From IMG/VR virus record IMGVR_UViG_3300045988_068671, positions 20,518-84,517 of that record: a DNA stretch of 64,000 nucleotides, one strand, 5' to 3'. The DNA comes from a virus. The notes beneath the pieces were generated by a model. That model was not told where the DNA came from. It worked only from the letters and a program-made list of their open reading frames with translations, and did not search any database. Below, in pieces: positions 2,605 to 58,291 of the stretch. The position numbers were made by a program, and so were the translations under genes. Each line of letters begins with the position of its first letter. Positions within the stretch are counted from its first letter, which is position 1.

Positions 2605-2605
2605 A

Positions 2606-2818
2606 TCATTGTATTATTAAAGTTTCATCAACTACATCGTGATCTATTCCCTCTATGGAAGCAGTTAGGTCCTCAACAGCCTTCTACAATTCTGCTTTAG
2701 TAGCATAGTTCTTGAGAACTTCCTAGTCTACTCCAGAGCCTCCTCCTATACTTCCTCCAACAACTTTTACTGGTTTGGCAGAACTCTTAAACTGTCCTTC
2801 AATATAAATTGTTCCCAT
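2606..2818 (-). CDS. small hypothetical protein (about 70 aa) with one in-frame TAG
   Basis: ATG 2816-2818, TGA 2606-2608, hand translation. Confidence 0.35.
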
Positions 2819-2823
2819 ATTGT

Positions 2824-4689
2824 TTAAAATATTAATTGTTCATTTTCTCCATCTACCTCTACACTAGAACCTGGCTATAAAGCGTCTATCTTTTTCTACA
2901 ATTCGGCTACGGCCTAGCTAATTAGTTCTTCTACCTCAGCTTTGGTGTAGTATCTCTCTATAAGATATTCGCTCCTAACATATCCAGTATCTTGTAAATC
3001 TTTTTCTCCATAGGTGCAATAATAAGTATCTTCTTCAGTCTTACTATTCTCAACTAGGTCATCATAATCAGCTTGTGGTAAGCATACAAGTTTTGGTACT
3101 TCTTCAGTAATAGCAACTTGCTTGCCTCCAGCAAATAGCCTGTTATCTTCTGTGGTAAGTTTAACAGAACTCTCAATAACTTGCTCAGTTCCTGTTTCCT
3201 CAGAAGGTTCTCCAGTTGTTCCCTATTGTACTTCTTTTTCTCCAATTTTCTAAATAGTAATATCAGAAGTTTCTACTGATGTAGATTTCAAAAGCTCAGT
3301 GCTAAATTCTTTAGCAGCAGCAGCCTAATCATCCTGATATTTTTTCTAGGTAACAAATATGAAATCATCATCTCCGGTTTCAGGAGAGTCTCCCCTTAAA
3401 CTTTCTTTTGTTACGTAATCTTCGGCTATCTAATCTGATAAATCAGATAATGACTATTGAGTAGCATAAGTAGACTGAGCATTTTCCTTAGTAAGAAATT
3501 TGTCATCAACCTGCTAAATAGTATAATAAGCCTTAATATCTTCTGTAGTAACGTAGTTTCCAAGTTTTTGCAAACCTTGAACTATTTCATCAATCTACTT
3601 CTTGGAGTAATAATTTGTAGCAACCCAGGACTGATATTGATTGGTAGTATGATAATTCTAATCCAAATATTCCTTAGTAATATAAACCTTTGCATCATTT
3701 GTGACGTCATATACATAGTAATATGTATCAGGCTCTACCGTCCCTTCCTCTACTAACTTTAGATACTCTTCTTCAGTTAATGTTACTAAGTTCGGAATAT
3801 CCGATTCAGTAGCAATCTAATCTTCACCTATAAATAATCCTTCAGACCTAACGTCTACTACTAACTAGCTCTCTCCCTCTACTACAGGAGATTTTATCTA
3901 TCCAACAGTGATGCTTTCTAAGGAACCATCTCCATCTACCTTTAAAGTCTTATCTAGCTCATCTTGAATAGCCTATTGGTCTTCGTCATACTATTTCTTT
4001 GTAACAAAGACAAAATCATCTCCTTCCATTCCTTCTCCTCTAAGACTTTCTTTGGTAACAAATATGTCATCAGTTTCTTCCTTAGTATAATGGTTAGATA
4101 AGGCTTTAGATAACAAGGACTCTGGGTCCTCTAAATCTAGATCAGTTTTAGGGGCATAATTCTCAGTTAACTCTTCAAGGGTAGCATACTTGGAAAGGTT
4201 AGAGATTGTCTAGTCTAAATCCGTTCTAATCTGTACGACAGTAGTATTTAGAGCTTTCTATTTCAACTATTCCTCTATCTTTTTACCCCATTCTGCTGAT
4301 AAGTAAAACTAATCATCATCTAGGCTGTCTTCATATATATAATAATATGTTTCTGCATGAAGATATGTTTTATCTTCGTCTATAGGTTTAAAATCTTCTG
4401 TGGTATTTTTAGACCATTCCTTATATTCAGCCTCTGTACAGGTGATTATCTAAATAGATTCATAAGAAGCTTTCCAACCTTCTTTGTATTTAATCTTAGA
4501 CTTATCTACTAGCATATAAATATTTCCGTTATCTATATTTGAAACGGTCATGCCTTGATAAGCATATTTCTCCGGAATAGAATATAATTCGTCTAAATTA
4601 TCGACTACTGTTCTATTATCAAGAGGTTTAGGAGTTTCTACGGTTAAAGCAACACCTAATGTAGCATCACCTGTATATTTAAATGCCAT
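2824..4689 (-). CDS. tail-fibre-like repeat protein (about 621 aa) with many in-frame TAG
   Basis: repeated motifs (EEYLKLVEEGTVEPDTYYYVYD / EEVPKLVCLPQADYDDLVE...TYYC); ORF piece 4450-4689 ends at TAG; length divisible by 3. Confidence 0.55.
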
Positions 4690-6278
4690 TATTGTGATAA
4701 AGTAAAGTTAATTTGATGAGGTAGTGCTGAAGAGTAGGTATCCTTCTTAGTCCATACTTTATATGGGAATCCATTTATTTGTTCAGTAGAAGCTTCCCAA
4801 CCATTCAGATCGACATTCAAATATCCCAATCCTCCATCTACTGTGAAGGAATTTAGCTGAGTATTACTTCCTGGTAGTTTTATAATAGCCCTACCGCTTA
4901 ACGAAAATGTAATAGTGCCAGAAGCCTAATTAAATGGAACTAAAGACTATTTTATTAGCCCATCAGTATTTCCGGAATACCAAGGATAAGTAGCTGTTAC
5001 TTGTGCAGTTGCTGATATTGAACCAGCTTCCACCCTCTTGTCTGTAACCTCTCCCTTGTTGTTAATAAGATATTCTCCAGCAGCATAATTTACGGTACCA
5101 GAATGCACATAAACACCGATAGAATCATATGTTTCAGATTCTACAGGAGAATCATTATAGGTAATAGTTTCTTCTCTACCAGTTTCCTCTCCAGCATCAT
5201 TTTTTATAAATGTTAAAGTAGGGGTAAGTAAAGCGGATCCTACCTCCACAATCTAAGAGGTGAAGCTATAATACAACTAAGGATAAACCAAATCTCTAAC
5301 AACAGTAGGAAATAATAGAGTATCTATAATCTCATTAAACGGCTTTCCTTTCAATTTTTCGACTGTAGTTCCTTGAATAACAGTAGAAGTAGTATCATCT
5401 GGAAGTTCAGTTTGATAAGTGGCTATAGTTTCTAAACTTGTCTATATATTTGTGATATTCTTAGTATTGGAATCTACTTTAGAATCAGTGTTCTTCTAAG
5501 CTTCCTATACCCCCTTAACTTCTTCCTTTACCTCTGTTAGAGATGGTTCCAAGTCTTTTACATATATTCCAGGTAAAACTACTGTGGAAGGCTCCCCTTC
5601 CTCCTCTACTGGAGGAATTTCCTACTTAATCAGATGTATTGCATTATCCTCCTACTAAGATAGAATTACTTCTAGAGTATTATCATCCTTTATTTCTATG
5701 GTTTTGGAGTTTTTTAGACTATTAGTTATCCAATTCTAGATGTTTTTGTCAACATCTATATTTTTGATAGACTCGTTAATATCCTCTATTGCCTCATTAA
5801 TCTAGGTTATTTTCTCAGAAAGATTGTTTATGCCAGTTCTGTTAGATTCAATTTCTTCTTCGAGTTCTTCCTTAAGTACAGTAATAGAAGTTCTGATATT
5901 ACTTATATCAACTTTTATTTCCTCTATTTCTTCTGTATTAGCTTCGTACTAACTTATAAAGAATAAAGCATAATCTAAGGCATCTTTTACAGTATTGATA
6001 TTCTCTGCAACATCACTAGTATAAGTCCATTTCTATTCTATGTACTATACTAGATCTTTCTAGGCTTCTATAGTTCCTTCTATATTTCCCCAAAGAAGAC
6101 TCTATTCATCAGCGATGCCTAGATTCTTTCTAACCTTAGCTCTTTCTAATTCAGTTCTATATTCTCCAAGATAATTATTTCTTAAGAGAGGTATAGGTTC
6201 ACTTTTTATTAAATGTCCTTTCTTTCCACAAGGCTTTATATCAGCATTGCTTACCGAAGTGTAAATAGGCTGTATCAT
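4689..6278 (-). CDS. structural protein (about 529 aa), coiled-coil N-terminus, TAG-recoded
   Basis: contains ORF piece 4947-5249; TAA overlaps the next ATG (TAATG). Confidence 0.5.
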
Positions 6279-6433
6279 TATGATTCAATAATTGCTATTT
6301 AATAAATTCGTGATTATCTAATTTTACGGGTAGGTTAATAAAACAAATTAGATTCAAAATATCCTAATAATCTGGTCTATATCCCTTTCTAACCCTTTTA
6401 AGGAAATCCTCATACCTTTTAATAGCCTTTCTT

Positions 6434-7162
6434 TTAAGAGCATCCACAACCTATACGTTTATGTTCATGGTGATTGTTACAGAATCCACCGCAAGTACGG
6501 AACATCGCTAACAATCTTTCAGCTTCCATGAATTGTTTAAAGCCTATTAAATAATCTATAATGTTAAGTGTCATCCAGATAAAATCTCTTGCAAATATAT
6601 CTGCATCATGTTCTCTAGTTAAACACTTATTTAATAAAGAGTCAAAGAGTTTCTTACAGTAGTTAATATAACACTATTGCAGATTTCCTGTAAAGAACAC
6701 ATCTACCTTACATTTTTTGATAGTAGTCCCTTCTATATTTCTTTCAAGGATTTCTTTTACAGTACATTCCTCTAGCTCTCCATCTACTTCTTTATATAGT
6801 TTCTCTCCATCAGTTATATAGATAGTTTCATAATACTCCTTGTATTCATCAGATGAATTTTCATACCATTTCATATTAGGAAGAATTATGTGGTCTACTA
6901 CATAATATCCATCTTCTTTCACCTTAAATGTACAAGAGTCTAAATCCTCTGTATGGTCATTGAGAAGTACGTCTATCAAAGTAGCATCTCCTATACTAAC
7001 TTTTATGATAGTATTTAGGGTAGCACTTTCACTATACTTATAAGAATCATAGGAAGTTACTACCTCTAAATCTTCATCAATATACTATCCATATTCCTTT
7101 GAAAAGTCTTCAATAGTTATTTCCCCGTTAATCTGGGTATGTATATCAATACTAAATTCCAT
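6434..7162 (-). CDS. hypothetical structural protein (about 242 aa), Cys/His-rich C-terminus, TAG-recoded
   Basis: contains ORF piece 6674-6979, which ends at TAG; the true stop is TAA at 6434. Confidence 0.45.
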
Positions 7163-7172
7163 ATTATAATAA

Positions 7173-7907
7173 TTAAGACTCAGTAGTAGGCCATTGACCA
7201 TATTGAGCAGGAGTAGAAAATGGTTTCCACTTACCTTCTTGTCGTATACGTCTAGACATAAAAACTGAACTAAATGATAAACTAATATCTTGAGGATAGT
7301 CTGTCCATGTATATGACTAACCTTCAGGGGTCGGTGGTAGACTATTTAACTTACCAGCTGGTTTTCCATTCCAATAATAATTATAGTCATACGCTTTAGT
7401 TGGAGTAACAGTCGTTGTTTCATGTCCTTCTGAATCTACATATAGAGGATTTCCCTCCTCATCTGTTTTCTACTTATACTCAATAACTGGAGTTATTCCC
7501 TCAGTTCTAGTGTATATATTCTAGATAATAGTAGAAACATCGCTTGCTACAATCTCATAAATAGTAGTTCCCTGAGATTCGTCAGCCCCCTAGAAAGTAA
7601 ATTTAGTTCTTTTCCAGATATATGGATTCTCTTCAGTTGGAAGTTCAAAAGTATCAGTCCACTATTTAGTAGATAATTTTATCTCAGATTCTTCAGCAGT
7701 GTCAGCAGGTAAGTAATGAATCTTAATAATAATATTATTTACCGCTTCACTAGAACCAGAAAGGTCTGACACCTATTTAAATAGTTTCTTTAAATCTTCT
7801 TCCACATTTGATTTAGAACCAGAAGCATTACTAATAATTACTGAACCATCTGAAATAGGATAAATCTATTGCTAATCCTTATTATATACAATTGTTCCAG
7901 TTGCCAT
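7173..7907 (-). CDS. hypothetical structural protein (about 244 aa), TAG-recoded
   Basis: hand translation, ATG 7905-7907, TAA 7173-7175. Confidence 0.45.
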
Positions 7908-7908
7908 A

Positions 7909-10080
7909 TTAATGTATTTGTCTTATTTTGTCATTATATGGATTTCCATCATGAAGCTAAGCCAACTCTATTTCAGTTCTCTTTTCTTCTATATCCATTT
8001 GTCTATCTTTATATGTAGAATCAGATTGAGCTTTGAGCCAGTTAACCTTATATTCTAACTACATTTTCTGCTATTCTAATCCTAATCTCTACTCATCCAA
8101 ACTTTCTATCTTCTACTAAGCTTTCTATAGTTCTTGCTGTAACTGCTATGCCTATTGTGAAGTTTCTTCCAATTTTTCCTATAGCTACTATAGCTAATTG
8201 TTTTCTTCTTTACGAATCTATACTGCTTTCTTAACCTTGTATTTAAGGTCTGTAAGACTCTTAGCAGTTAGTGCTTCAAATATGATGTCAGGATCCATTT
8301 GCTGACTTTTAACAAACTCTGGAATAATAGCTTTAATAGTTTGTAAATCTTCCATTACTTCAGAGCTAGAAGTTATATGGATGTCATAATCAGTAACCGT
8401 AAAATACTCTGGAAGCGCTGTAAATATCTGCTAGTATTTATCTCCAAGTATAATAGTACCAGTCAATCCTTTCTTATATGTTATTTTAGCCTAGTTTAGA
8501 CTATCCAATAATATCTCACAAGTGATTAGGTCCATCTACTAGAAATAATGCTTGGTTACTATGTAAGAGTTAGTAACACCTTGCTTAATATTAGTTACAG
8601 CATCGTGAGTTTCTATTCCATTTAATCTTTCTCTAAATACTCCAGTTATAGATGATGTAGTTTGTTCTACTGATTGAATTGCTAATTCAATAGCCTATAC
8701 AGCCTAAGCTTTTAAGGTATCATCAAATCCATTGTATATCTAGTTAGGTGCTTGCGCTCCATCATTTCTTCCCTCCTAAGTGGAATCAATCCACATGATA
8801 CCACCCTTCTTGTATGCTAACCATTTCTACACTCTTTCTGGCCATTTTACGCCTAGGTTAGTAGGAAGCAATGACATATCCATGATTACTCCAGCAGTAC
8901 CGCTGTTAGCTATCAGGTTGTCCCTATAATAATTTAACAAGTCATATCTATCCTGTAGATGTGCACACTTTAATATCAGAGAGTACGGTTGTTGGGAACG
9001 ATTTAAGAAATATACCCCATTCACAGACAAAGAGCAGAAATTAGGATTATCTTTCGACCTCATAACAGTCTTGTCTAGACCTCTCAGAATATATATTTCT
9101 TCTCCAATTCTAATGGTATTGTATCTCTACATTACAAAATCGTCATCAGTTTCTATCCACTCTACATCATAAACAGGAATTAACTAAAATCTATGAGCAC
9201 TATATTCATTATCTGGATATCCAGGAATAGTTTCATGATTCTAATCTTCGTTTACTATAGTACAAGTGTCACCATAAACTCTTCTATAAACTGCAGCTGA
9301 ATCATCAGCTCTCCATTCATCTTTTAGTCTTTTCAAATCTTCTCTAGAGATTTCTTTTCCGTATTTAGCTAATATCTAGCTTTTACTCATCCATTTTCTA
9401 ACCACAACTCTATACGAATTTCTAACATATGGAGATTCTGGATTCCTATCTACGAAAGTATTTAAAGGATTCAGAACTTCTATTTCTATGTTAGTTCCAG
9501 AAGATGATGATTTTACTCTGAAAAATGTATAGCCAGTAATTAATAAATCTGTAAGTAACTATCGGAGTTTAGTTATTAAATCGGTTTCTCTAGACTGCAT
9601 GATATAATGAATAATATTCTATGCAGCTATCTCATATTGAGAAATAAAAGACTAATCAATGTCTTGAATAATTTTATCTAACTAAGTCTTCACGGCTTTA
9701 TCTGTAATATCTTTTCCGTCGATAAATTTCAGAATAGAATTACTTAAATGGTCTCTAAGAAATTTAACTATTCCTTTAGTTATTTCTAACTATTTTTCTC
9801 TGGTGATATTACTAATGGTATCTGAATCCTTACAAGAAATCTTCGGAAGGATAGGGGTTCCTAGATATTCCCCTACTAGAGCATCTACGTGCTTTTTTAG
9901 TAATGGTGTAAATTCTACAGAAGTAGGACTACCTATTCCAAAGTTTTCTTCCAGGTAACGAAACTATTCTGGGTCTCTCTTTCCGTTATAGTAATTATAG
10001 GCTTTCTATAATTCGTACTTATCATATACAAGCTCCGCAATAGCCTCGTTCGTCTTGTCTATCAGTTCTTTTTCTTTCAT
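7909..10080 (-). CDS. large virion protein, possibly portal (about 723 aa), TAG-recoded
   Basis: continuous frame with about 20 TAG; contains ORF piece 8827-9063; sits immediately downstream of the terminase. Confidence 0.45.
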
Positions 10081-10300
10081 AACATAAATTATGCTGTTCT
10101 GGAGGAAGTTTAGTTGCATTATAGTATTTAACTCTTTGTAACTTCCTACTTCTTAATTCTTCCTTTATAAATGGGAGAAATTCTTCATCAGGTAAATCAG
10201 CTATAATGACTAAAGGCATCTCTGACCTATCAAAGTTAAACGATACCTTATAACCAACTGGATCTAGGTTCTGAATTTCAAGCCCACCTACGTATTCCAT
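10022..10300 (-). CDS. small hypothetical protein overlapping the TerL 3' end
   Basis: ORF-track frame 10022-10483 trimmed to the internal Met. Confidence 0.25.
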   Translation of the reverse strand: MEYVGGLEIQNLDPVGYKVSFNFDRSEMPLVIIADLPDEEFLPFIKEELRSRKLQRVKYYNATKLPPEQHNLCYERKRTDRQDERGYCGACI

Positions 10301-12638
10301 TTTGTACAAGTCTCTCATATAACCTAGGATCACTTGTTTCAATTCTGTATGGGTCATCGTATTCATTTTTTTGTATGTTAGTTTCAAAAGTCTTAGAAGT
10401 TGGTATAACCCCAAATCTTTTGATTCCTCTCTCGTCGTAATAATAACCATAATCTTGGAATTGTTCAACTTCTTTTTCAACAAGCACTGGCTATCTTCCT
10501 GACAATTCCTAGTCTGCCAATTCTGTCATTCCTACAGCGGCTACAATATCGAATTTACCTTTATTCTCATCATTATATCCAGTAAATTGGTCTAACATTT
10601 CTTCAAACCATATAGTATGACAGAAATCCTCAATAAAGGCTGCTGTCAAATCAGTATGTTGTTCTATAATAGTTTTGGTAGCGGGTGTTCCGTACTATTT
10701 AGTAGTTCCATTCTTGACGTCTGTTAGAGTAGCTCTAGGTCTTTTCATAAAGTAGTTTAAACAACCCTTTTCTCTAGCCCAGGTAATCATACCTACACGG
10801 GTAGCTTCTATGTTTATTCTACAATTATAGTATCTAGCTAAACACATAGCTATTTTATAGGCTTCTCTAATGTCATTAGGTCTGTCTTTATACATAGCAA
10901 CATACTACGGTTCGTTTAGACCAAATGCTCTTCTTTTTATAGTTATACAGAAATCAGAAGGATCTCTTGTTTCTTTTGAAGTTTGACTAGCTCCTATATC
11001 AATACCGTCTATTCCTGCAACATATAAATCATGCATTTCTTTATACGCTGGAGATTCAAATTCTTCTCCCCTTTCCTCAGCTTCCTGTCTAAGTTTATCC
11101 ATCTATTCTTTATACAAATCAGACCATACAGGATGTTCAAGTATCTTTACTTTTCCGTTAATATTAGGAATCCATTTAAAACCATCTATATTATCCTAGG
11201 TGTGTTTATTGTTTTTATAGAAGTAGTCTATGTATCCAGATTCTGGTCTTGGTCCTATTTTCTTAAGTCTTATATTAGCTAATTGGTCCGCAATAAGAAT
11301 CTTGTTAAACTTGTTGACACCTTCAAGATTAAATGCTTCTTCTGCATTCCAACATCGTTCTGCACACTTCTTTAGATAGTCATCTGGAACCGCTAATAAG
11401 TTATCACGCTCTTCCTATAGATACTTCTTATATTCTACTGTATTACATACACCCCTATGGTCCATGTATTCTGAATTTAGGGACTAGACAAAATACGGAA
11501 TGAAGAATCCACTTTCAATAGTAGTTCCATCCTATGTATAATTATGTCTAAATGGAAGAACTTTGTAAGCTTTTGGATTGTAATATATCTTCTTAAGACC
11601 TGCTAATGGAGCACCCATATCACCACCAGTACCTCCAAATAACATTGTTCCACGAGGTTTACCCTGAACTTCACAAAGCTCTTGCCCCTGCACTACAGCA
11701 GTATCTAGTCCAGGCCAAGACCCTGCTTCATCATATATTAATAAGTCAACACGGTCTCCACGAATATTAGATGCCTTAGCTCCATTTATTCCAACTACTT
11801 CTGATTTAAATCCAACATCCTCAAACTGTCCGTTTACCTTAATCTGTTTACCAGACTTTTTTCTTAAGTCTTGGTCAATCAAACGTAGTTTGAAGAATCC
11901 CCCTCCTGTACAAGTATTCAAGAATGTTAAAGCATTATCAAACTTACTAAAAGTACCTTTAAGGAAGGTATCATTAAAACAAGTAATCATTACTCTGCTT
12001 CTTCTGATTACTGAATACATTCTTGCAGATAAGGATGCATTTATTTCAGAGAATCCAATAGAACGAGCTTTCATTAGAGCTGCGTGTTTATGCAGGACTC
12101 TAGCCATCTACAGATAATGAAAGAACATATAATGAGATGCGAAAAATATAGGAAAGTCACTACTTGTTCCTTCTCCAGATGCTTTGTTATCATCAATAAT
12201 AGGAAGCTAGTAGAAGTTTAGGAAGAAATAGTTATCTCCAGTAATTGTATAACCATTAACAGTCATTCCATATTTACATCTTCTATACTATTCCTTCCAA
12301 AACTCATTATATCTCTTACTATCTTTTAGATATGGACAATACTTTCCAGTTTTTCTATATACTTCTCTAGTCTCAGTAAACCAGTCTGGGTCGAAGTCAA
12401 GACCATGTGTCTCATCTATTGGTCTATATCCAGTTATTTCATAAGATAAAGTAGGGTCAAATACTTCTATCTTATCTCCTCTTTTTACATCCCAATAATC
12501 AGCATTTTTGTCCCTTTCTTCTCTTATCTTCTATACTAGTTCTCTAGCTTCTTTGGCATCCTCTTTTTGTTCTTTCTCTCTTACCTAATCTACTATATTC
12601 TAGATTTCTTCAGGTAATATTTTTTTCTTTCTAGGCAT
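10278..12638 (-). CDS. terL: terminase large subunit (about 786 aa) with about 12 in-frame TAG
   Basis: Walker-B-like GDRVDLLIYDEAGSWPG, C-terminal nuclease-like region; ORF pieces 11532-12107, 10905-11102, 10695-10895 and 10278-10487 are co-frame. Confidence 0.7.
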
Positions 12639-12640
12639 AA

Positions 12641-13207
12641 TTAAAAGTCTCCTGGGTCAAAGCCGTCTGTAGCTCCACCTCTTACAGTAGATTGTTCTGT
12701 AAGCTCTTTCTTAACCTGCTCTTCTAGTGTTACTAATTCTTCATGAACTTTATGAAGAGTAGCCATTTCTTTCATTACCTTTTCAGCTTGAAAGACGGGT
12801 TTGCCATTATTATCACGTTCATTTAAATCTACTATAGTATCAAAATAATCAATAAACTAGTCAGCTGCTCTTTTAGCTGCTTCTAGAAGTTTTATTGATT
12901 TGTTAGAATCCTACAATGCTCGGTATTTTCTACAGGCTTCCCTGAATAACGGGTCATTAAATTCGGATTCAGATAGTCCAGAGTCACTAATAGCTTCATC
13001 ATGTCTTTCATGTTCTGAATATTGGCTATAAGGACTCTTCCAATCAATAGCTAGATAAATGTAAGACAATTCTCTAGTTACTCGTTCCTTGTCAACAGAT
13101 TTATCTCTCTGTATCAAAGCCTTAAACTCTTTAACTAGAAGAAGCTCTGGTTCATTTATCTCTAACTATTTAGTTAAAGTGTTATAATTAAATACATTCA
13201 TACTCAT
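12641..13207 (-). CDS. possible terminase small subunit (188 aa), TAG-recoded
   Basis: position immediately upstream of terL; TAA overlaps the terL ATG; contains piece 12911-13117. Confidence 0.4.
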
Positions 13208-13237
13208 CAATCATTAACATTAACATCTTTAATCTTT

Positions 13238-14455
13238 TTATTTCATTTTAGAACCGCATTTACTTACTTTCATTTTAGAACCACAAGCATCCTTCTTAGC
13301 ATACTTTGTTCTATCTGGAACCCATTTTCCATTTTTGAAATTTCCCTTGTGTCCCCTGTTCGCCATAACCTCCTGGTCATTATATTTATTAATTGATACG
13401 GAATCTCTGGACGCTTCATCCTTTGCAGATTTCATATCCTTTTTATACTAAGCTCTTCCAGCTTTGAACTTGTCAACTTCATTAGCTTTCTTAGTAACCT
13501 TAGTTCCTTTCTATGCTTTTTGGCAAGCTTTGCAGATTCTTCCTCCCTGTTTAAAATAAACAAGTTCCTCTCCTTCTGGGCATACTCCTTTTAATTTTTT
13601 ATAGTATTCTAGTTTAGCTCCAAGTCTAGCCATAACTCCGCCTTGCATCTTCTACATAAATTCTTGATACTTGGCTTTGATTCCATCTTCTCCTAATTGC
13701 TGAGCATATTGTTCTAAATCCTACTCAGATTGTAATTGTATTCCTTGTGCTGCGGCATCCTGTATTAAGTATGCCATAAATGCTTTTTGTAATTCTTCCT
13801 AATTAGCCATTGCTCCTCCTTGTTGATATTTAACTCGTTGCTATCTAGCAGTTGCCTTTGGTATATGTTCCCAACTTCTCTAATTTTTGAGCTATTCTGG
13901 AGTTAGTTTCTGCCCATACATATTAGTTGTAGGCGGCTTTATCCATTGTTCTTGGATAGTTCCAGTATGCTCTCCAGTTTCCTAGTCTACTTGATTTTGG
14001 TACGTAGTAGCTCTTTTTCCGTCTTGACTATATGTAACATAGGGATTATTCATTACTGGAGTTCCTACCTCTACTGTTGCTTTCTTTCCATTAGCTAACT
14101 ATGTTCCATACACTCCTTTCCCCCATTTGAATTGAGTTAGTCCTCTCTTTCTGGCTTCTCTAAATGCTGCACCAAACCCCTAGACTCCTCTTAAGTCGTC
14201 GTTTTGAATTTGTTGCTAAGGTGCATTTATTTTCTTAGGAATAGTAGGAGTAGACGGCTTTAATCCTAATATAGGTTTTTGTTGTATAGCTGGCACAGCA
14301 CTTCTTTTCTTCTACTATGCAGTATTTCTAATAGAGTTCGGATTACTTTGCCAAGTCTAATGCAACTGTTGTAAAGTTCTTCCGTCTAACTCTGCGTCTC
14401 CATATATAGTCTTGATATGCTACATTAACTCTGGATCAAATTGTATTTTCGCCAT
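13238..14455 (-). CDS. Gln/Lys-rich hypothetical protein (about 405 aa), TAG-recoded
   Basis: C-terminal piece 13238-13435; continuous frame upstream with many TAG. Confidence 0.45.
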
Positions 14456-14665
14456 TATTCTTCTACTTTAATTAAGTCTTTTGTATTAAATACTGCTTCC
14501 TGCATTAATCCAGAATCAGTAAACCATCTACATCTTAGTCCTCGTAATCCTTGGTTATCTTTAAATAAAGCTGCTTCTCTTCTTAGAACAAGCATAACTG
14601 GAGAGTGCATTACTTTACACTACCGTAAAGTAACACAATCCCCAGGCTTAAAATAAACTTTTTCA

Positions 14666-18638: not shown

Positions 18639-18655
18639 AACTATTAATTTTGGCG

Positions 18656-18727
18656 TTGCCCTACTAGGATTCGAACCCAGACTAAATGATTTAGAGTCAT
18701 CTGTGCTGACCATTACACCATAGGGCA
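18656..18727 (-). tRNA. amber suppressor tRNA, anticodon CUA (reads UAG); resembles the window's tRNA-Gln
   Basis: full cloverleaf: acceptor TGCCCTA/TAGGGCA, anticodon arm GATGA-CTCTAAA-TCATT, T-loop TTCGAAT; D-arm identical to tRNA-Gln at 33540. Confidence 0.8.
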
Positions 18728-20278: not shown

Positions 20279-21071
20279 CACGACTCTCTCGTGTATAAAT
20301 AAGTCAAACGTGCAACTCTAAGGTATTACGAGTATAAATAAAATGCCCATATGAACTCCATCATTGGAACATTGGTCAACGGAGAAATCAACAACAAAAC
20401 AAAAAAAAATCAAAACCGAGTTAACTTTTGTAGTAGTTTTAGTTTTTATGTCTGGCTGATAGGAAAGACTATCATTTCTTTTGAAAATTCAGTTTCACAA
20501 AAGAAAATATGGGCAAGTAAGGAGAAGAATGTTCCACAAACTCAAAGGCAGATTTTCCTACTTTTTCCAGTTTTCAAAAAATCGCCAGTAGGACGAGTTT
20601 TATAACTCATACTACAATGATTATTTACTCTAACATTAGCCTATAAAAAGGCAACAAAAAGCGGGGTTACGCAGATAGCCCAATATCCGAAAATAACTGC
20701 TATTAATGAAAATGAGAGTTCGCAAACTTATCTCATGAGTAAGGAGGATTGAGCTATAAGATTGGTCACTTATAGCAATATATGAAAGTACTGCTGACAT
20801 ACCAGTAGACCATGTATGTCATATTTTTATATGTTATGCAATTGTATTAGAAGTTGCCTGGTATAAGCCGCTAGATTAATAAGGCTAGCTGATAAGAGGA
20901 TACCTCATAAGGGTATATTTCCTACCTCGAACTCAGTCGCAAGAATATGGATTAGCTACCTATATTCTTAGTGAACGTTAGTAACGTAGCTATTTGATTT
21001 TCAGTATAGGAAACTGAGAATTAAGTAGTTGAATAACTCTCTATCTTATACTAGTTGCCAAGATAGAGTTT

Positions 21072-21141
21072 TCCCCATTAGTATAATGCATTGCGCCTTC
21101 CTCTAAAGAAGGAGATTCTGGTTCAAACCTGGAGTGGGGAA
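21072..21141 (+). tRNA. second amber suppressor-like tRNA, anticodon CUA; D-arm atypical
   Basis: perfect anticodon arm CCTTC-CTCTAAA-GAAGG, T-loop TTCAAAC, acceptor TCCCCAT/GTGGGGA. Confidence 0.55.
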
Positions 21142-21284
21142 CTTAGTATTTGAGGACTACAGCTACTTGTAGGCTCTATTTGCTGTTAAGGACTATAATG
21201 GGTACGCCCAGAGACTATGTAATTGTTGTGAAACAATTCAAAGGAGAGTGGCACAGGAAGGTCTTTTGATAGTGTTCATTTTTT

Positions 21285-21310: not shown

Positions 21311-21404
21311 AAAACTCAGCTTAGGAGAGTATAAAATACCATCTGATGAGACTAGGACGAAATATACTTTGTATATAATGGTATAACTAATTAAAACTAA
21401 GAAG

Positions 21405-21956: not shown

Positions 21957-22292
21957 ATGAAAGAGATAAAAATTCTAGAAACAACAAAAGTTCTCTCTGA
22001 TAGAGAGGCTGATTTACTTTGTTCCATATTATGGTCTTTAGGTATTTATCCAGAGATTACAGCACTTGAAAGGAAAAATAGAAACATTACACTGGCGAGT
22101 ATTCTTCCAGAAATGCAACCTAGGACAGCTAGCCGTATTAGAGCTATGTTGGATGATCAAGTTTATATCTCTCTCAACATTTTCATGGAAAACTATTCTT
22201 GGCGTGATTTCATGAAAATGCCTGGTGTTGGAAGGAAATCGCTAAGTGATTTAAGATCAGTTTTGCAAAAGTACGGATACAAAACATTCTAA
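21957..22292 (+). CDS. hypothetical protein (111 aa)
   Basis: ORF track. Confidence 0.5.
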   Translation: MKEIKILETTKVLSDREADLLCSILWSLGIYPEITALERKNRNITLASILPEMQPRTASRIRAMLDDQVYISLNIFMENYSWRDFMKMPGVGRKSLSDLRSVLQKYGYKTF

Positions 22293-22421
22293 CTCGACTT
22301 CGCGAGTATAAATAGGCTTTAGGCGGAGAGCGGTAGGTAGAATAGTCTACCTACGTAGTGTAAAATACTTGCTATTTAGCAAACAAATGTGTAGTATTCT
22401 ATAAATAAAAATTAAATATTT

Positions 22422-36962: not shown

Positions 36963-37036
36963 GTCTGGATGCCTGAGTGGTCTAAGGGAACGGTCTGCAA
37001 AACCGTGTTTCGTGGGTTCGAATCCCACTCCAGATT
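36963..37036 (+). tRNA. tRNA-Cys(GCA)
   Basis: loop CTGCAAA. Confidence 0.8.
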
Positions 37037-38514: not shown

Positions 38515-38817
38515 ATGAAAATAAAGTGTACAGTATGTAATAAAGAATTTTATTATGGAGACCATAACTCTCCAATGTTTATTGATGAGGTTTGGAACAA
38601 GATAATAAATTACTTTAAGCTAACCAATTTTGAAAAAGAAGCTGCAAAGAAATTCTCCTCTTATTACAAAGGGGGAGGTAAAGATTATTATCCAGACCAC
38701 CATGTGTTTATCTGTAGCGAATGTGCGGAGAAGGCTCTAGGTAGGGAAATAACTGATAAGGATATTAATGATTCATTATTTAATATCCCATTTAGAGAGA
38801 AGTACTTTAAATCTTAA
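38515..38817 (+). CDS. zinc-ribbon protein (CTVC...CSEC)
   Basis: ORF track. Confidence 0.45.
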   Translation: MKIKCTVCNKEFYYGDHNSPMFIDEVWNKIINYFKLTNFEKEAAKKFSSYYKGGGKDYYPDHHVFICSECAEKALGREITDKDINDSLFNIPFREKYFKS

Positions 38818-38818
38818 T

Positions 38819-38903
38819 ATCCGTGTGGGTGAATGGTTTAGCCATCAGTCTGCAAAACTGAAAAGAGAAATCTTTAATGAGGGTTCGAATCCCTCCACGG
38901 ATT
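38819..38903 (+). tRNA. unusual tRNA: GCA (Cys) anticodon with a 17-nt class II-type variable arm
   Basis: acceptor ATCCGTG/CACGGAT, TCAGT-CTGCAAA-ACTGA, variable stem AAAGA-GAAA-TCTTT. Confidence 0.6.
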
Positions 38904-38923
38904 CTAATTTTAAATTTAAAAAT

Positions 38924-39705: not shown

Positions 39706-39784
39706 CGTGGAGTAGAGAAGTGGTCATCTCGCTAGGCTCATAACCTAGAAATCGTCATAAACGGTTCGAATCCTACCTCCGCAA
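39706..39784 (+). tRNA. tRNA-like element: CAT anticodon, C1xA72, aberrant T-stem (possible degenerate or initiator-like)
   Basis: D-arm GAGA/TCTC, CTAGG-CTCATAA-CCTAG, TTCGAAT. Confidence 0.3.
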
Positions 39785-40028
39785 CGAAACTCCTTTTGTG
39801 GCTCTGAATTAGATTAATTATTAACAATTTTAAACTTTGATGTTATGAAGAAAGTAATTAATGTTGTGAAGAAAGCTGCTAAGTGGTATTTTGAACAGAG
39901 TTCTAAGAGCTATACATGGTTAGTTTCTGGAACTATTCCGCCTCCTTATAGAGGTCTAGAGTAAAGATACTACTAAAAGGTAAGTACCAAAGGGGTACTT
40001 ATCTACACCCGTGGAGAAAATTAACTAT

Positions 40029-40629: not shown

Positions 40630-40702
40630 GGGCCGTTAGCTCAAATGGCTAGAGCGCTGGTTTTGCACACCGGAAGATAGGGTTCGAGTCCCTGCGTGTC
40701 CA
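40630..40702 (+). tRNA. tRNA-Ala(TGC)-like with G3:U70 but a partly mismatched acceptor
   Basis: loop TTTGCAC. Confidence 0.45.
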
Positions 40703-42591: not shown

Positions 42592-43154
42592 GGGCCTACT
42601 TGGATTTGACAGGCGATTACGAATTATAAGGACGTGTAGAGCGCAATCTCTTTAAACGAAGAAAACAAATAACTGCAGAAATTGCACCTGTAAGAATGGC
42701 AGCCTAAGCTGCTGACTTATTAATAGACAATATTAATCAAGTCGGGTTAATGGGGAGACCTAGAAACAGAAGAGGTTTGTATCTAAGTGTTATAACGAGA
42801 CCTTCAGGGAAGAATCATAGTACCTACAGGTTACAGTGAAGCTTAGATGCATTAACTTGAAAGCCAAAGGTTAGTAGAGCTGAAATCTCCACTGCCTATC
42901 TATGGGCTACAAATAGACGTTCTCCAACGTAAATGGAGTGGTGGAAGAATGACTTCTAGTCAGCCCCCAGTTTGGTAGTTTGTAAATTAGTTAGTAGGAG
43001 GACTGCTGGTTCACCTCTACTGTAAAGAATCCAGCTCTTCTAATAAAACTATCTAAATGCTAGAACTCACTAGCTGATGTAATAAAAATGAGACGCACGT
43101 TATCCTTGTAATAAGGGTTGTTTGGACACGGGTTCGACTCCCGTTAGGTCCACA
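42592..43154 (+). ncRNA. ssrA: tmRNA (ssrA-like); tag reading frame 42675-42707 (AEIAPVRMAA-stop)
   Basis: 5' GGGCCUACUUGGAUUUGACAGGCG and 3' GGACACGGGUUCGACUCCCGUUAGGUCCA closely match E. coli tmRNA termini; G3:U70. Confidence 0.7.
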
Positions 43155-43178
43155 TGACAGGGCTATAGTTCAACCGAT

Positions 43179-53592: not shown

Positions 53593-54609
53593 ATGAAGAG
53601 AATTTTTAGTATTATTTGTTTGTGTTTGATGTGTGCATTTGCTAGCGCACAAGTTGTTGAGACTGGAAGTATGAAGGATAACTGGTATATTTCTGGTAAT
53701 GTTGGAACTACTATTTGGGATAACCATAGAAGTTGGGCAGAACCAAATGATGTACTAGTAAACATTGCTATTGGTAAGGAGATTACTCCTATCTTTGGCT
53801 TGGAGTTAGACATGATGGCTGGAATGAACCAAGGAAATAAAACATTCTTTGATTCACATAATTTGACAGCTAACGTTACTACCAATCTTACTAACCTGAT
53901 ATGTGGATATAACGGAGATAGACGTCTGTTTGAGCCTATATTAATCATTGGTGCTGGTTGGTATCATACTTATGGAGGTGTCTATAATAATGTATCCGCC
54001 CGTGGAGCCGTTAGATGTAACTTTAATATCTCTAATAGATGGGCATTAAATGTTACTCCTGAGTATATGTTACTTCCCAAGACTTCCCCTCTGAATCATG
54101 AGTTTAACATCTATATTGGTGCTACCTATCGCTTTAAGTCTAGCAAAGGGGACTTTCCAATTATGAAGTTGTATAGTGATGCCGAGGTTGAAAGCCTAAA
54201 CGCTTCTATTAATGAGTTGAGAGCCAAGAATGAGGAACTTATGGCTCGTAAACCAATAGAAATTGTTAAGACGGACACAATCGAAATTACTAAAGTAGAG
54301 CTTTTGACTCCAAAAATTCAATTCCTTCAAAATTCTTCAGAGATTTCTAAAACTTCCAATGTGGCTGTCTCAGAACTAGCTTCCTATATTTCTAATAGTG
54401 GAAAAACTTATGTGATTGAGGGATATGCTTCGGAAGAAGGTCCAGAAGAGTTTAATAATAACCTTGCTGTAGCTAGGGCAGAATCTATGAAGAAGGCTCT
54501 GATTAGCTATGGTGCTCCAGAGGATAAGTTGGTTGTTAAGGGATGTGGAATTACCACTGAATTTGGAGATAATGAATTTAATCGTATCGTAATAATTTCT
54601 GAACAATGA
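53593..54609 (+). CDS. outer-membrane OmpA-family protein (signal peptide, OmpA-like C-terminus)
   Basis: VIEGYASEEGPEEFNNNLAVARAESMKKAL. Confidence 0.6.
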   Translation: MKRIFSIICLCLMCAFASAQVVETGSMKDNWYISGNVGTTIWDNHRSWAEPNDVLVNIAIGKEITPIFGLELDMMAGMNQGNKTFFDSHNLTANVTTNLTNLICGYNGDRRLFEPILIIGAGWYHTYGGVYNNVSARGAVRCNFNISNRWALNVTPEYMLLPKTSPLNHEFNIYIGATYRFKSSKGDFPIMKLYSDAEVESLNASINELRAKNEELMARKPIEIVKTDTIEITKVELLTPKIQFLQNSSEISKTSNVAVSELASYISNSGKTYVIEGYASEEGPEEFNNNLAVARAESMKKALISYGAPEDKLVVKGCGITTEFGDNEFNRIVIISEQ

Positions 54610-55046: not shown

Positions 55047-55874
55047 ATGAAGACAATTATTAAGCTTTTGTGTGTATTAACTTTGGTGTTTGGCTTGTCT
55101 AGTTGTGGCTACGAGAGAATTGATGCTGGTTACGAAGGCATTAAGGTGAATCTATACGGAGACGGTAAGGGAGTAGACGATGTGTCTCTTGTTACTGGCG
55201 CGGTGTGGTATAATCCTGTTACTACGGCTGTATATGAATATCCTACATTCGTACAGACTGTGGACTATCCTCCTTTCAGTATTAATGCTAAAGATGGATC
55301 ATCATTTACTGTAGACCCTACAATTTCTTTGAAGATTGTTGACGGGAAATCACCAGAAGTATTTAAGAAGTATAGAAAGGAAGATATTGTAGAGGTAATT
55401 AACACTACTTTGTATAATTACGTAAAGAATGCTTTTCGCATTCAGCTGAATAACTATACTACTGATGAACTAGTAAGTAAACGTGAGGAGTTTGAGAAGT
55501 CTATAGAAGATAGACTGTCAAAGGAACTCTTGGCTGAGAATTTTCAGCTTGAACAAATGACTTCTGGTCTTCAATATCCACAGACGCTAGTCAATTCTAT
55601 TGATGCTAAGAATGCTGCAATTCAACAGGCTTTGAAGGCAGAGAATGAAGTTAAGACTATTGAGGCAGAAGCTAAAAAGAAAGTAGCAGCTGCACAAGGA
55701 GAGGCAGAAGCTCTTAAGATTAAGGGTGATGCAGAAGCTGAATATAATAGAAAGATTTCAGCATCTTTGTCAGTTCTCATAGTTCAGCAGGATATGATTA
55801 AGAAGTGGGATGGAAAACTTCCTACTTATGGTCAGGTTCCCACCTTATTTAAAGACGTAGCTAATAACAAATGA
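55047..55874 (+). CDS. SPFH/prohibitin-like lipoprotein (lipobox LSSCG)
   Basis: band-7-like core plus AEAEAKKK coiled coil. Confidence 0.55.
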   Translation: MKTIIKLLCVLTLVFGLSSCGYERIDAGYEGIKVNLYGDGKGVDDVSLVTGAVWYNPVTTAVYEYPTFVQTVDYPPFSINAKDGSSFTVDPTISLKIVDGKSPEVFKKYRKEDIVEVINTTLYNYVKNAFRIQLNNYTTDELVSKREEFEKSIEDRLSKELLAENFQLEQMTSGLQYPQTLVNSIDAKNAAIQQALKAENEVKTIEAEAKKKVAAAQGEAEALKIKGDAEAEYNRKISASLSVLIVQQDMIKKWDGKLPTYGQVPTLFKDVANNK

Positions 55875-56728: not shown

Positions 56729-58291
56729 ATGGAAATAATTAATGCAACAGATGGCTATAAATTGGGCCACCATAGAATGTATCCAGAAGGTACTGAACAA
56801 GTTTACAGTAATTGGACTCCTAGAAGTAACAAATACTTTCCAGAAGCCACTGAAGGTTCTGTAGTATTCGGAATCCAATATTTAATTAAGAAGTATCTGA
56901 TTGATGAATTTAATCAGAATTTCTTTGGATTGCCCAAAGAGAAAGCTGTAGAAATGTTTTATCGAAGAGTTCATAACTTCGTGGGAATTGAGTCCGTAGG
57001 ATATAAACATATTGAAGCCTTGTATGATTTAGGTTATCTTCCCATTCGCATTAAAGCGTTGCCAGAAGGTTCAATATGCCCTATTAGGGTTCCTATGATG
57101 ACTATTACTAATACAAAGTCAGAGTTCTTCTGGTTAACTAATTATTTAGAGACTTTGATTAGTTGTACTCTGTGGATGCCTTGCACCTCTGCTACTAGAG
57201 CAAGACTCTATAAGAATGAACTTAAAAGACACGCAGTACATACTGGATTTCCAGAAGATGTAAATCTGGATTTCTTGTGTCATGACTTCTCTATGAGAGG
57301 AATGGCTGGTTTAGAGGCCGCTATCATTTCTGGTATGGCACATATGACTTCGTTTGTTGGAAGTGAGACCATTCCAGCTATTGCTGCTCTAGAAGAATAT
57401 TATGGTGCAAATTCTGACAATGAATTAATTGCCGCCACTGTTCCAGCTACAGAACATTCTGTAATGTGTGCTGGTGGAGAAGAGGATGAACTTCAAACCT
57501 TTAAGCGATTAATTAACGAATTGTATCCATCTGGGTTCGTTTCTATAGTTTCTGATACTTGGGACTTCTGGAATGTTATTGAAAACTTCCTTCCCAAATT
57601 AAAGAAGGATATTATGGCTCGTGATGGACGTGTAGTTATTCGTCCAGATAGCGGAGACCCTGTTGATATTATTTGTGGTTTAAGAACTAATCCTCACTTC
57701 CATACTAGAATGAAAGAGGGTAAGTATTATTGTTGCTACGCTCCATTTAACGATGATGCTGAGTATGTAGAAGTTTCAGAAGGTCAATACTACGGTGCTT
57801 ATTATATGCTTGGTAAGATTTTTGGATGGAATACTACTTCTAAGGATTATCGCTATCCTAGTACGAAAATAGGTTTGTTGTATGGTGATTCTATCACTCT
57901 TGAACGTCAGAAGCAAATCTATATGCGACTTGAGAATGCTCATATGGCAGCTTGCAATCTTGTTCTAGGAGTAGGTTCATTTTCATATCAGTATGCAAGT
58001 AGAGATAGCTTAGGCTTTGCAATCAAAGCTACTGCTTGTGTAGTTAATGGAGAATTGAAAGAAATATTCAAACATCCTAAAACAGATGATGGAACTAAAA
58101 ATTCTCTTAAAGGTCTAATTGCTGTCTATCAGGACGTTAATGGCGTTTACTATGCTGAAGACCAGGTAACTCCTGAGGTAGAAAGCGGAGGCTGCTTAGA
58201 GACTGTGTTCGAAGATGGCGTCCTTAAAAAGGAGTACACTCTTAAAGAAATTAGACAGCGGATTAATGAAGGGCTTTATGGAAAGTTTTAA
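56729..58291 (+). CDS. nadV: nicotinamide phosphoribosyltransferase
   Basis: NAMPT-like N-terminus DGYKLGHHRMYPEGT and overall length. Confidence 0.75.
   Translation: MEIINATDGYKLGHHRMYPEGTEQVYSNWTPRSNKYFPEATEGSVVFGIQYLIKKYLIDEFNQNFFGLPKEKAVEMFYRRVHNFVGIESVGYKHIEALYDLGYLPIRIKALPEGSICPIRVPMMTITNTKSEFFWLTNYLETLISCTLWMPCTSATRARLYKNELKRHAVHTGFPEDVNLDFLCHDFSMRGMAGLEAAIISGMAHMTSFVGSETIPAIAALEEYYGANSDNELIAATVPATEHSVMCAGGEEDELQTFKRLINELYPSGFVSIVSDTWDFWNVIENFLPKLKKDIMARDGRVVIRPDSGDPVDIICGLRTNPHFHTRMKEGKYYCCYAPFNDDAEYVEVSEGQYYGAYYMLGKIFGWNTTSKDYRYPSTKIGLLYGDSITLERQKQIYMRLENAHMAACNLVLGVGSFSYQYASRDSLGFAIKATACVVNGELKEIFKHPKTDDGTKNSLKGLIAVYQDVNGVYYAEDQVTPEVESGGCLETVFEDGVLKKEYTLKEIRQRINEGLYGKF

Follow-up and report, generated by a model that had tools for sequence, protein, structure and literature searches.

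A long-arm tRNA gene with a cysteine anticodon in a human-gut phage, and its probable identity as a tRNA-Cys

Introduction

What does a transfer RNA (tRNA) do when its anticodon belongs to one amino acid and its shape to others? The window, a 64,000-nucleotide stretch of DNA (positions 20,518 to 84,517 of the IMG/VR virus record IMGVR_UViG_3300045988_068671), raises this question at positions 38819-38903, where a tRNA gene with the cysteine (Cys) anticodon GCA carries the long variable arm of a class II tRNA. Textbooks and recent reviews assign such arms to the tRNAs for serine (Ser), leucine (Leu) and bacterial tyrosine (Tyr), plus selenocysteine (Sec), and to no others (PMC7609411, PMC9976931). 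A sequence-only reading of the locus had described this shape and had offered two functions for it: a Ser or Leu body that would mistranslate UGY codons, or a relative of the SelC-like recoding tRNAs. The class II shape with its Cys anticodon held up, and neither of the two functions found support. We consider it probable that the gene encodes a functional elongator tRNA-Cys of a phage that recodes TAG, charged by cysteinyl-tRNA synthetase (CysRS), in which the variable loop has been expanded into a hairpin.

Structure of the tRNA gene

The gene consists of the following parts.

38819..38903, plus strand: whole tRNA gene, class II shaped, anticodon GCA (ARAGORN, Rfam tRNA model, minimum free energy fold, family model R1)
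38819..38825 with 38896-38902, plus strand: acceptor stem ATCCGTG / CACGGAT, 7 base pairs (bp), first pair A1:U72 (read from the sequence)
38828..38843, plus strand: D arm GGT(G) / AATGGTTT / (A)GCC, 3 bp and a G13.A22 mismatch, D loop AATGGTTT
38845..38861, plus strand: anticodon arm TCAGT-CTGCAAA-ACTGA
38852..38854, plus strand: anticodon GCA, which reads UGU/UGC (ARAGORN, sequence)
38862..38878, plus strand: variable region of 17 nucleotides (nt), a 14-nt hairpin AAAGA-GAAA-TCTTT followed by unpaired AAT (positions 46-48)
38879..38895, plus strand: T arm GAGGG-TTCGAAT-CCCTC, 5 bp, canonical T loop
38903, plus strand: discriminator base 73, T (U73) (sequence)

Up to the discriminator the gene is 85 nt long, and CCA is not encoded. 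ARAGORN calls a tRNA-Cys(gca) at 38819-38904, and the Rfam tRNA model RF00005 spans 38819-38903 with 56.3 bits, above its gathering threshold of 29 (E=4.5e-12, local search). The features expected of an RF00005 member are present, namely the cloverleaf, the conserved U8, A14, G18G19 and U33, and the T-loop TTCGAAT, and the alignment renders the variable region as a 14-nt insertion plus flanks. U8 and G9 follow the acceptor stem, and A15 is able to form the Levitt pair with U48 (38878). The stems are all perfectly paired and the universal nucleotides all intact.

Folded by minimum free energy, the single sequence gives a cloverleaf whose variable region forms a 5-bp hairpin (-26.7 kcal/mol, z=-2.59), and only one of 200 shuffled sequences folded equally well. 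An intron or an alternative fold was ruled out, as the fold, ARAGORN and Infernal are concordant; the long arm survives, and no alternative fold removes it. The perfect acceptor, the clean arm of the anticodon and the extended variable arm in company with GCA, all described by the sequence-only reading, are borne out in every detail by ARAGORN, RF00005 and the fold. The 17 nt that it had given for the arm correspond to the full variable region (38862-38878), of which the hairpin itself takes 14.

Identity elements

The major determinants of CysRS are U73 and the GCA anticodon (Giege and Eriani, PMC9976931), and U73 by itself gives minihelices Cys identity (PMC9976931). Both are present here, at 38903 and 38852-38854. 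Bacterial Ser identity involves G73, C72, G2-C71, R4-Y69, C11-G24, a large variable region and G30-C40 (PMC9976931). Five of these seven are absent, the sites being occupied by U73, U72, U2-A71, C4-G69 and G11-C24; only the large variable region and G30-C40 are found. Leu identity depends on A73, which is crucial, and on tertiary features, and Tyr identity on A73 with G34 and U35 (PMC9976931). The discriminator is neither the G73 of Ser nor the A73 of Leu and Tyr, and C35 stands in place of the Tyr U35, while one Leu feature, A15:U48, is present. The arm has a 5-bp stem and three unpaired nt on its 3' side, as opposed to one in phage tRNA-Ser, and in this it matches tRNA-Tyr and the long-arm Cys family described below. 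These elements do not bear out a Ser or Leu identity body that mistranslates UGY.

A family of long-arm GCA tRNAs in phages

A pattern scan of IMG/VR viral contigs (CTGCAAA, 20-30 nt, then GGTTCGAATCC) returned at least 119 stretches. In the scanned viral loci ARAGORN called GCA tRNAs that are long, at 82-93 nt, and vary greatly in their stems, and subsequent parsing of the long-arm tRNAs in the loci gave 92 non-redundant long-arm GCA tRNAs among the matches listed, a few hits in cellular genomes included. Their variable regions measure 12-22 nt. All long-arm tRNAs parsed from the fetched loci, again with the GCA tRNAs from cellular genomes, fall into the groups below, in which arm geometry is given as unpaired nt on the 5' and the 3' side.

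Long-arm GCA, n=92: U73 in 78/92 (85%); arm (1,3) modal; stem 3-4 bp; pairs 2:71 and 3:70 unconstrained
Ser of phage loci, n=83: G73 in 62/83; arm (1,1); stem 5-7 bp; G2:C71 in 79/83, A3:U70 in 64/83
Leu of phage loci, n=66: A73 in 66/66; arm (0,1) or (1,2); stem 3-6 bp
Tyr of phage loci, n=41: A73 in 39/41; arm (1,3); stem 3 bp

Of the GCA tRNAs, 47 of 87 have a hairpin with 3 bp or more at geometry (1,3), compared with a mean of 3.5 and a maximum of 10 when the variable regions are shuffled (500 shuffles). The covariance model R1 (alignment A2), made from nine members, aligned 59 non-redundant viral members, in which the four base pairs of the arm form in 41/45, 46/46, 45/46 and 39/47 cases with three to five Watson-Crick pair types each; because this alignment was fitted to the model, the pair counts lean toward the structure. 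U73 is found in 56 of 58 viral members of the alignment. The tRNA at 38819-38903 scores 74.6 bits with R1, and the other tRNAs of the window score 72.6 (class I Cys), 64.9 (Ser(GCU)), 57.8 (Tyr) and 47.1 (Leu).

All features that define the family are present in the window's copy: the 7/5 branch (acceptor and T stem lengths), GCA, U73, G13.A22, R15:Y48, and a hairpin placed before the three retained nt 46-48. It is nonetheless a divergent member, with the D loop AATGGTTT where the family has AGTGGTTGA, and with A15:U48. The three retained nt are often CAC in the family and AAT in this copy. Position 48 covaries with position 15 (G:C in 76 and A:U in 5 of 87, this copy being among the latter). 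The retention of three nt and the 15:48 covariation together suggest that the hairpin was inserted between positions 45 and 46 in an otherwise normal variable loop.

The family was compared with ordinary class I phage tRNA-Cys (n=94, from a second scan).

Pair 1:72: class I, GC 76, GT 7, CG 4, AT 3; class II, GC 76, GT 6, CG 4, AT 3
Discriminator U73: class I, 90/93; class II, 78/92
13:22 as G.A: class I, 66; class II, 68 of 92
15:48 as G:C: class I, 70; class II, 76

Isotype profile hidden Markov models were also built from phage tRNAs, after the arm had been cut out and both anticodon and discriminator masked. Among long-arm GCA members with U73, the best profile is class I Cys in 64 of 77 and Ser in 11. 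The class II gene is, moreover, the sole Cys tRNA in 44 of the 61 fetched loci that have at least 10 tRNAs (for example L127, with 29 tRNAs). To judge from these sequence statistics, the long-arm GCA family behaves like tRNA-Cys, unlike Ser, Leu or Tyr.

Frequency and distribution

An unbiased viral scan, with a spacing of 9-30 nt allowed from the anticodon loop to the T loop, gave 120 stretches. There were 102 new loci (96 with a class I Cys gene), and 18 were already known from the class II pattern, 12 of these with a class II gene called by ARAGORN. By these counts, class II genes make up approximately a tenth of the sampled phage tRNA-Cys genes of this sequence type. When a stricter pattern was run against representative genomes from 185,579 species of bacteria and archaea, it matched only 42 stretches, and about half of these lie in dense, phage-like tRNA arrays on contigs of metagenome-assembled genomes (MAGs); two such contigs, binned as 'Clostridium' and 'Bacteroides', are relatives of the window phage. 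The family is widespread, enriched in phages and rare in cellular genomes.

The other cellular hits are of two kinds. The first are singleton Ser-type GCA tRNAs with a GGAG... acceptor, G73, an encoded CCA, (1,1) geometry and long stems, situated on cellular MAG chromosomes of Acidobacteriota, Verrucomicrobiota, Chthoniobacterales and Dehalococcoidia (L123, L128, L131, L136, L139, L142, L155, L159, L160 and L162). Their loops contain GCA or are 8 nt long (CTGCAAAG), and their sequences make them candidates for genuine Cys-codon missense or frameshift tRNAs. The second are Tyr-type long-arm tRNAs with A73 and with GCA in place of GUA, in MAGs of Trichlorobacter (L130), Krumholzibacteriia (L156) and Anaerolineales (L154). 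L130 and L156 have E. coli-type tRNA-Tyr bodies, and L130 lies between Thr and Gly/Thr tRNAs, as in thrU-tyrU-glyT-thrT. The Tyr-type tRNAs could represent a real anticodon change or an assembly error. In both kinds a true Ser or Tyr body is joined to a Cys anticodon, and the tRNA at 38819-38903 reads as neither.

The family has one member in a cultured phage, Rhizobium phage B1VFA (MT770738, 344-427), where it is annotated as tRNA-Cys-GCA and is named without comment in the genome announcement (PMC12509600). A BLAST search of GenBank phages with the tRNA at 38819-38903 found only a near-identical fragment, MT837398, and no annotated cultured relative of the exact gene. No description of a phage 7/5 long-arm tRNA-Cys was found in the searchable full-text literature, and such an absence is no proof of novelty; the family has apparently not been pointed out before.

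Charging and decoding

We propose that the transcript would be cut from the phage tRNA array and receive its CCA from a host enzyme. Host CysRS would then read U73 and G34-C35-A36 and charge the tRNA with cysteine, and the charged long-arm tRNA would decode UGU/UGC beside the ordinary tRNA-Cys of the phage. Since the hairpin lies between positions 45 and 46 and nt 46-48 are kept, the tertiary core (R15:Y48, G13.A22) is intact. That CysRS enzymes may charge a long-arm tRNA has a precedent in selC* tRNA-Cys, with an engineered CysRS in the case of the A1:U72 species. The phage needs Cys decoding: its Cys codon frequency is 18.3 per 1000 in plus-strand genes, mostly TGT, and the open reading frame (ORF) adjacent to the gene encodes a zinc ribbon. 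Two features of the window are relevant here.

36963..37036, plus strand: companion class I tRNA-Cys(GCA), G1.U72, U73, 5-nt variable loop, 74 nt
38515-38817: zinc-ribbon ORF, 100 amino acids, CxxC...CxxC, directly upstream of the tRNA

The companion, a standard tRNA-Cys that the sequence-only reading had also placed at these positions, is confirmed by ARAGORN and Rfam.

Several observations weigh against a CysRS-charged tRNA-Cys in the case of this particular copy. The first pair is A1:U72 in place of the usual G1:C72 of tRNA-Cys, a pair read by the CP1 domain of CysRS; A1:U72 occurs in 3 of 92 long-arm and 3 of 94 class I phage tRNA-Cys, and the selC* species with this pair needed a specialised CysRS. 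The variable region has 17 nt and a hairpin, rather than the 4-5 nt of the class I variable loop of tRNA-Cys, and together with the 5-bp arm it falls at the Ser-like end of the family range. The D arm resembles that of the window's tRNA-Ser(GCU). Without anticodon, discriminator and arm, the masked body scores 35.1 bits for Ser, 34.3 for Cys and 34.1 for Trp, values that the profiles do not separate. The nearest non-identical relative among approximately 1,500 sampled tRNAs is only about 70% identical. The gene is identical in 12 related contigs, but the flanks are 98-100% identical as well, so that these close relatives provide no test of purifying selection on this copy. Finally, some serylation would be possible because seryl-tRNA synthetase (SerRS) relies mainly on the long arm, and U73 is deemed compatible with serylation of allo-tRNAs (Mukai et al.). 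The A1:U72 pair, the Ser-like D arm and the ambiguous masked-body score leave some doubt for this copy.

A rival reading is a class II tRNA that accepts Ser (or Leu): SerRS would charge it via the long arm, its main determinant, without reading the anticodon, and Ser would be inserted at UGU/UGC as deliberate or tolerated Cys-to-Ser mistranslation. The marginally best masked score on the Ser profile, the D arm and the serylation-compatible U73 all agree with this, and the Ser-type GCA tRNAs of some Acidobacteriota, Verrucomicrobiota and Dehalococcoidia chromosomes (GGAG..., G73, 1/1 arm) demonstrate that genuine examples exist. However, the window's copy lacks G73, C72, G2-C71, R4-Y69 and C11-G24, and its arm leaves three nt on the 3' side where Ser leaves one. 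The 2:71 and 3:70 pairs, mostly G:C and A:U in phage tRNA-Ser of the same loci, are unconstrained in the GCA family, whereas the conservation of U73 (85-97%) and the Cys-like 1:72, 13:22 and 15:48 point to selection by CysRS. In the many dense arrays where the family member is the sole Cys tRNA, insertion of Ser would damage zinc-binding and catalytic cysteines. We therefore regard Ser acceptance as distinctly improbable and retain a CysRS-charged tRNA-Cys as the preferred reading. For annotation, the lesson is that a mismatch between anticodon and architecture does not by itself mean mistranslation.

Genomic context

The window has 35.6% G+C, and of its 27 ARAGORN tRNA genes nearly all are plus-strand genes located between 26 and 50 kilobases (kb). 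Its identity to MT837398, a sequence from human faeces, is 95%, and contigs related to the window phage measure 140-200 kb; the window phage is a human-gut phage. The features that bear on its genetic code and on the immediate neighbourhood of the tRNA are these.

787-14467, minus strand: seven ORFs, each with 2-34 TAG codons in frame, four of them with 15 or more
18655-18727, minus strand: tRNA with CUA anticodon, closely resembling the window's tRNA-Gln(UUG)
21072-21142, plus strand: second tRNA with CUA anticodon
38924-39559, plus strand: GIY-YIG homing endonuclease gene (Pfam 6e-13) with six in-frame TAGs, directly downstream of the long-arm tRNA

Given the in-frame TAGs and the Gln-like CUA tRNA (18655-18727), TAG is probably read as glutamine (Gln) in those minus-strand genes. 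This suggests a code in which TAG may mean Gln in late or structural genes, with most plus-strand genes in the standard code. No aminoacyl-tRNA synthetase was found among the window ORFs examined. In unrelated loci, no conserved partner gene (aminoacyl-tRNA synthetase, SelB-like or other) was found beside the class II Cys genes; the only enriched family is the HNH homing endonuclease (23/60 versus 8/71 locus groups).

Other elements of the window were observed in passing.

20849-21042, 21313-21382 and 22292-22360: a ribozyme/RNA cluster beside the second suppressor tRNA (plus strand), comprising a RAGATH-14 RNA (183 bits), a RAGATH-1 hammerhead ribozyme and a Pistol ribozyme
39706-39785, plus strand: tRNA-Met(CAT) with an 11-nt unpaired variable region and a poorly paired T stem (39.2 bits)
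40630-40702, plus strand: tRNA detected by Rfam only (39.5 bits), which reads as tRNA-Ala(UGC) with G3:U70
42592-43155, plus strand: Rfam match to transfer-messenger RNA (tmRNA), 68.8 bits, full model 1-374 over 564 nt, approximately 190 nt beyond the model, without an ARAGORN call, inside the tRNA array
31017-32990, 53593-54609, 55047-55874 and 56729-58291, plus strand: proteins comprising two SPFH/Band 7 proteins, an OmpA-like outer-membrane beta-barrel and a nicotinamide/nicotinate phosphoribosyltransferase

An insertion into a phage tmRNA might account for the match at 42592-43155. From the OmpA-like protein, the host would seem to be Gram-negative, probably one of the Bacteroidota.

Origin of the family

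Outside the arm, the companion class I tRNA-Cys (36963-37036) closely resembles a common class II type (L019). In a different member (L054), the half that holds the D, anticodon and variable parts agrees at 46 of 50 nt with tRNA-Tyr from Salmonella phage 7t3 and Klebsiella phage KP6F1, one arm pair having changed compensatorily. L054 departs from these tRNAs in having C35 for U35 and U73 for A73, and its acceptor/T half is completely different. These two likenesses tie the family to both tRNA-Cys and tRNA-Tyr. Pairwise body similarity of the family is 0.567 to class I Cys, 0.561 to Ser, 0.549 to Tyr and 0.537 to Leu, and gives no clear origin. The profiles favour class I Cys for the family and are ambiguous for the copy at 38819-38903, and the Tyr link is clear for one sub-lineage.

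In a further alternative, the gene is a decaying or recently remoulded duplicate, for example of tRNA-Ser(GCU) or tRNA-Tyr(GUA) with an anticodon mutation, poorly charged and effectively a pseudogene in a mosaic array rich in homing endonucleases. Either change, GCU to GCA or GUA to GCA, takes one substitution; L054 exemplifies a Tyr-to-Cys link elsewhere, and the Ser(GCU)-like D arm, the atypical A1:U72 and the GIY-YIG gene directly downstream would all fit. Decay is nevertheless difficult to reconcile with perfectly paired stems and intact universal nucleotides, and drift would not be expected to switch the discriminator to U73 as well. The gene also fits a large conserved family with its R1 score, and it is identical in the 12 related contigs, although these are too close to be informative. 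A duplicate of this sort is in our opinion improbable, and a functional tRNA-Cys again the better account.

Role of the arm

Long arms in these phages are not confined to Cys. The same phage arrays contain Thr, Asn, Met, Arg, Ile, Lys, Pro, Gln, Glu, Asp, Val, Trp and Phe tRNAs whose variable regions bear hairpins (for example at L019, L030, L035, L072, L082 and L085), often with GAAA loops and the same 1/3 geometry, and most of these tRNAs retain the discriminator expected for their identity. Such arms are found on 52 of 572 other tRNAs in loci with a class II Cys gene and on 12 of 514 in loci with only class I Cys genes (Fisher p=1.8e-6), approximately a fourfold difference, and arm gain therefore clusters in particular phages. 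Because several identities are affected within the same phages, the arm may be a property of the lineage. It might be neutral or stabilising, or might act as a tag that some factor recognises or avoids. On present sequence evidence it does not seem to mark a switch to another amino acid.

The clustering across identities also speaks for a tRNA-shaped RNA with a mainly non-translational function, either a decoy or resistant substitute against host nucleases that target tRNAs, or a molecule whose arm would allow a phage or host factor to distinguish phage from host tRNAs. The conserved arm geometry, the recurrent GAAA-type loops and the presence of a normal tRNA-Cys in the window phage agree with such a function. 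Yet every element for charging and decoding has been kept, including U73, GCA, a 7-nt loop with U33 and A37, a 7/5 branch for EF-Tu and a canonical T loop. In addition, the long-arm Cys gene is the sole Cys tRNA in most arrays, and no conserved partner gene apart from the enriched HNH homing endonucleases was found next to such tRNAs. We judge a mainly non-translational RNA to be unlikely.

A bolder hypothesis, to which we give a small chance, is that the hairpin serves as a functional tag on the tRNAs of certain phage lineages (Cys most often, and also Thr, Asn, Met, Lys, Arg, Val and others). It might evade host tRNA-targeting nucleases or the phage's own clearance of host tRNAs, or shield the gene from the homing endonucleases in which these arrays are enriched; bolder still would be dual charging with Cys and Ser.

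A CysRS-charged tRNA-Cys, which we continue to prefer, would have wider consequences. The long-arm architecture would acquire a fourth identity, Cys, with a normal 7/5 branch and at a frequency of about one in ten sampled phage tRNA-Cys, and from the data, tRNAs of identities that are otherwise class I seem to gain long arms repeatedly, as a trait that clusters in certain lineages of phages. Confirmed charging by CysRS would show how easily the boundary between tRNA classes can be crossed, provide natural scaffolds for tRNA engineering with an arm that tolerates inserts, and pose the testable question of why phages decorate their tRNAs.

Comparison with known systems

The closest known relative in kind is the selC* tRNA-Cys, a natural long-arm tRNA-Cys with U73 and GCA or UCA (Mukai et al. 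2017, PMC5389517). The assayed A1:U72 selC* species, which has an opal anticodon, was cysteinylated and decoded UGA in E. coli only with a CysRS engineered to resemble a dedicated paralogue (PMC5389517). The window's tRNA shares the long arm, U73 and GCA with selC* tRNA-Cys, and A1:U72 with its Desulfobacterales group. These likenesses favour a recoding tRNA, SelC-like (as the sequence-only reading had offered) or selC*-like, in which a Sec or Cys tRNA works with a special elongation factor. The secondary structure contradicts that proposal. tRNA-Sec, selC* and the allo-tRNAs have 8/5, 8/4 or 9/3 branches and long D stems (PMC5389517), and because the tRNA at 38819-38903 is 7/5 with a short D stem (3-4 bp and an 8-nt loop, not 6 bp and a tetraloop), it resembles none of them. 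The Rfam tRNA model also scores above the tRNA-Sec model of the clan, and no selA, selB or cysS-like gene was seen among the window ORFs examined. We rejected the SelC-like reading and find it hardly conceivable.

The settings differ as well. selC* tRNAs, with a tRNA-Sec-like 8/4 branch, a long D stem and a longer anticodon stem, occur in anaerobic bacteria that have Sec machinery and sometimes selB*/cysS*, whereas the tRNA described here has an ordinary D arm and sits in a phage tRNA array, no such partner genes having been seen among the ORFs examined.

A long arm on an anticodon outside Ser, Leu and Tyr is also a feature of the allo-tRNAs and of the nev-/nov-tRNAs, the latter being noncanonical V-arm tRNAs reportedly described in nematodes and other eukaryotes by Hamashima et al. 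Allo-tRNAs and nev-/nov-tRNAs are thought to mistranslate or to be non-translational. They keep Ser or Leu identity elements, whereas in the tRNA at 38819-38903 the identity elements agree with the anticodon.

Bacterial-type tRNA-Tyr has the same arm as the family, short (3-4 bp) with one unpaired nt on the 5' side and three on the 3' side. The difference lies in C35 and U73, which replace U35 and A73, the two major determinants of tyrosyl-tRNA synthetase, and the replacements are those of CysRS. With canonical class I tRNA-Cys, finally, the resemblance extends to GCA, U73, the 7/5 branch, the 3-bp D stem of the G13.A22 type, R15:Y48 and the family statistics at 1:72, 13:22 and 15:48. What distinguishes the family is its hairpin-bearing variable region of 12-22 nt (17 nt here) in place of 4-5 nt and, in this copy, A1:U72 rather than G1:C72.

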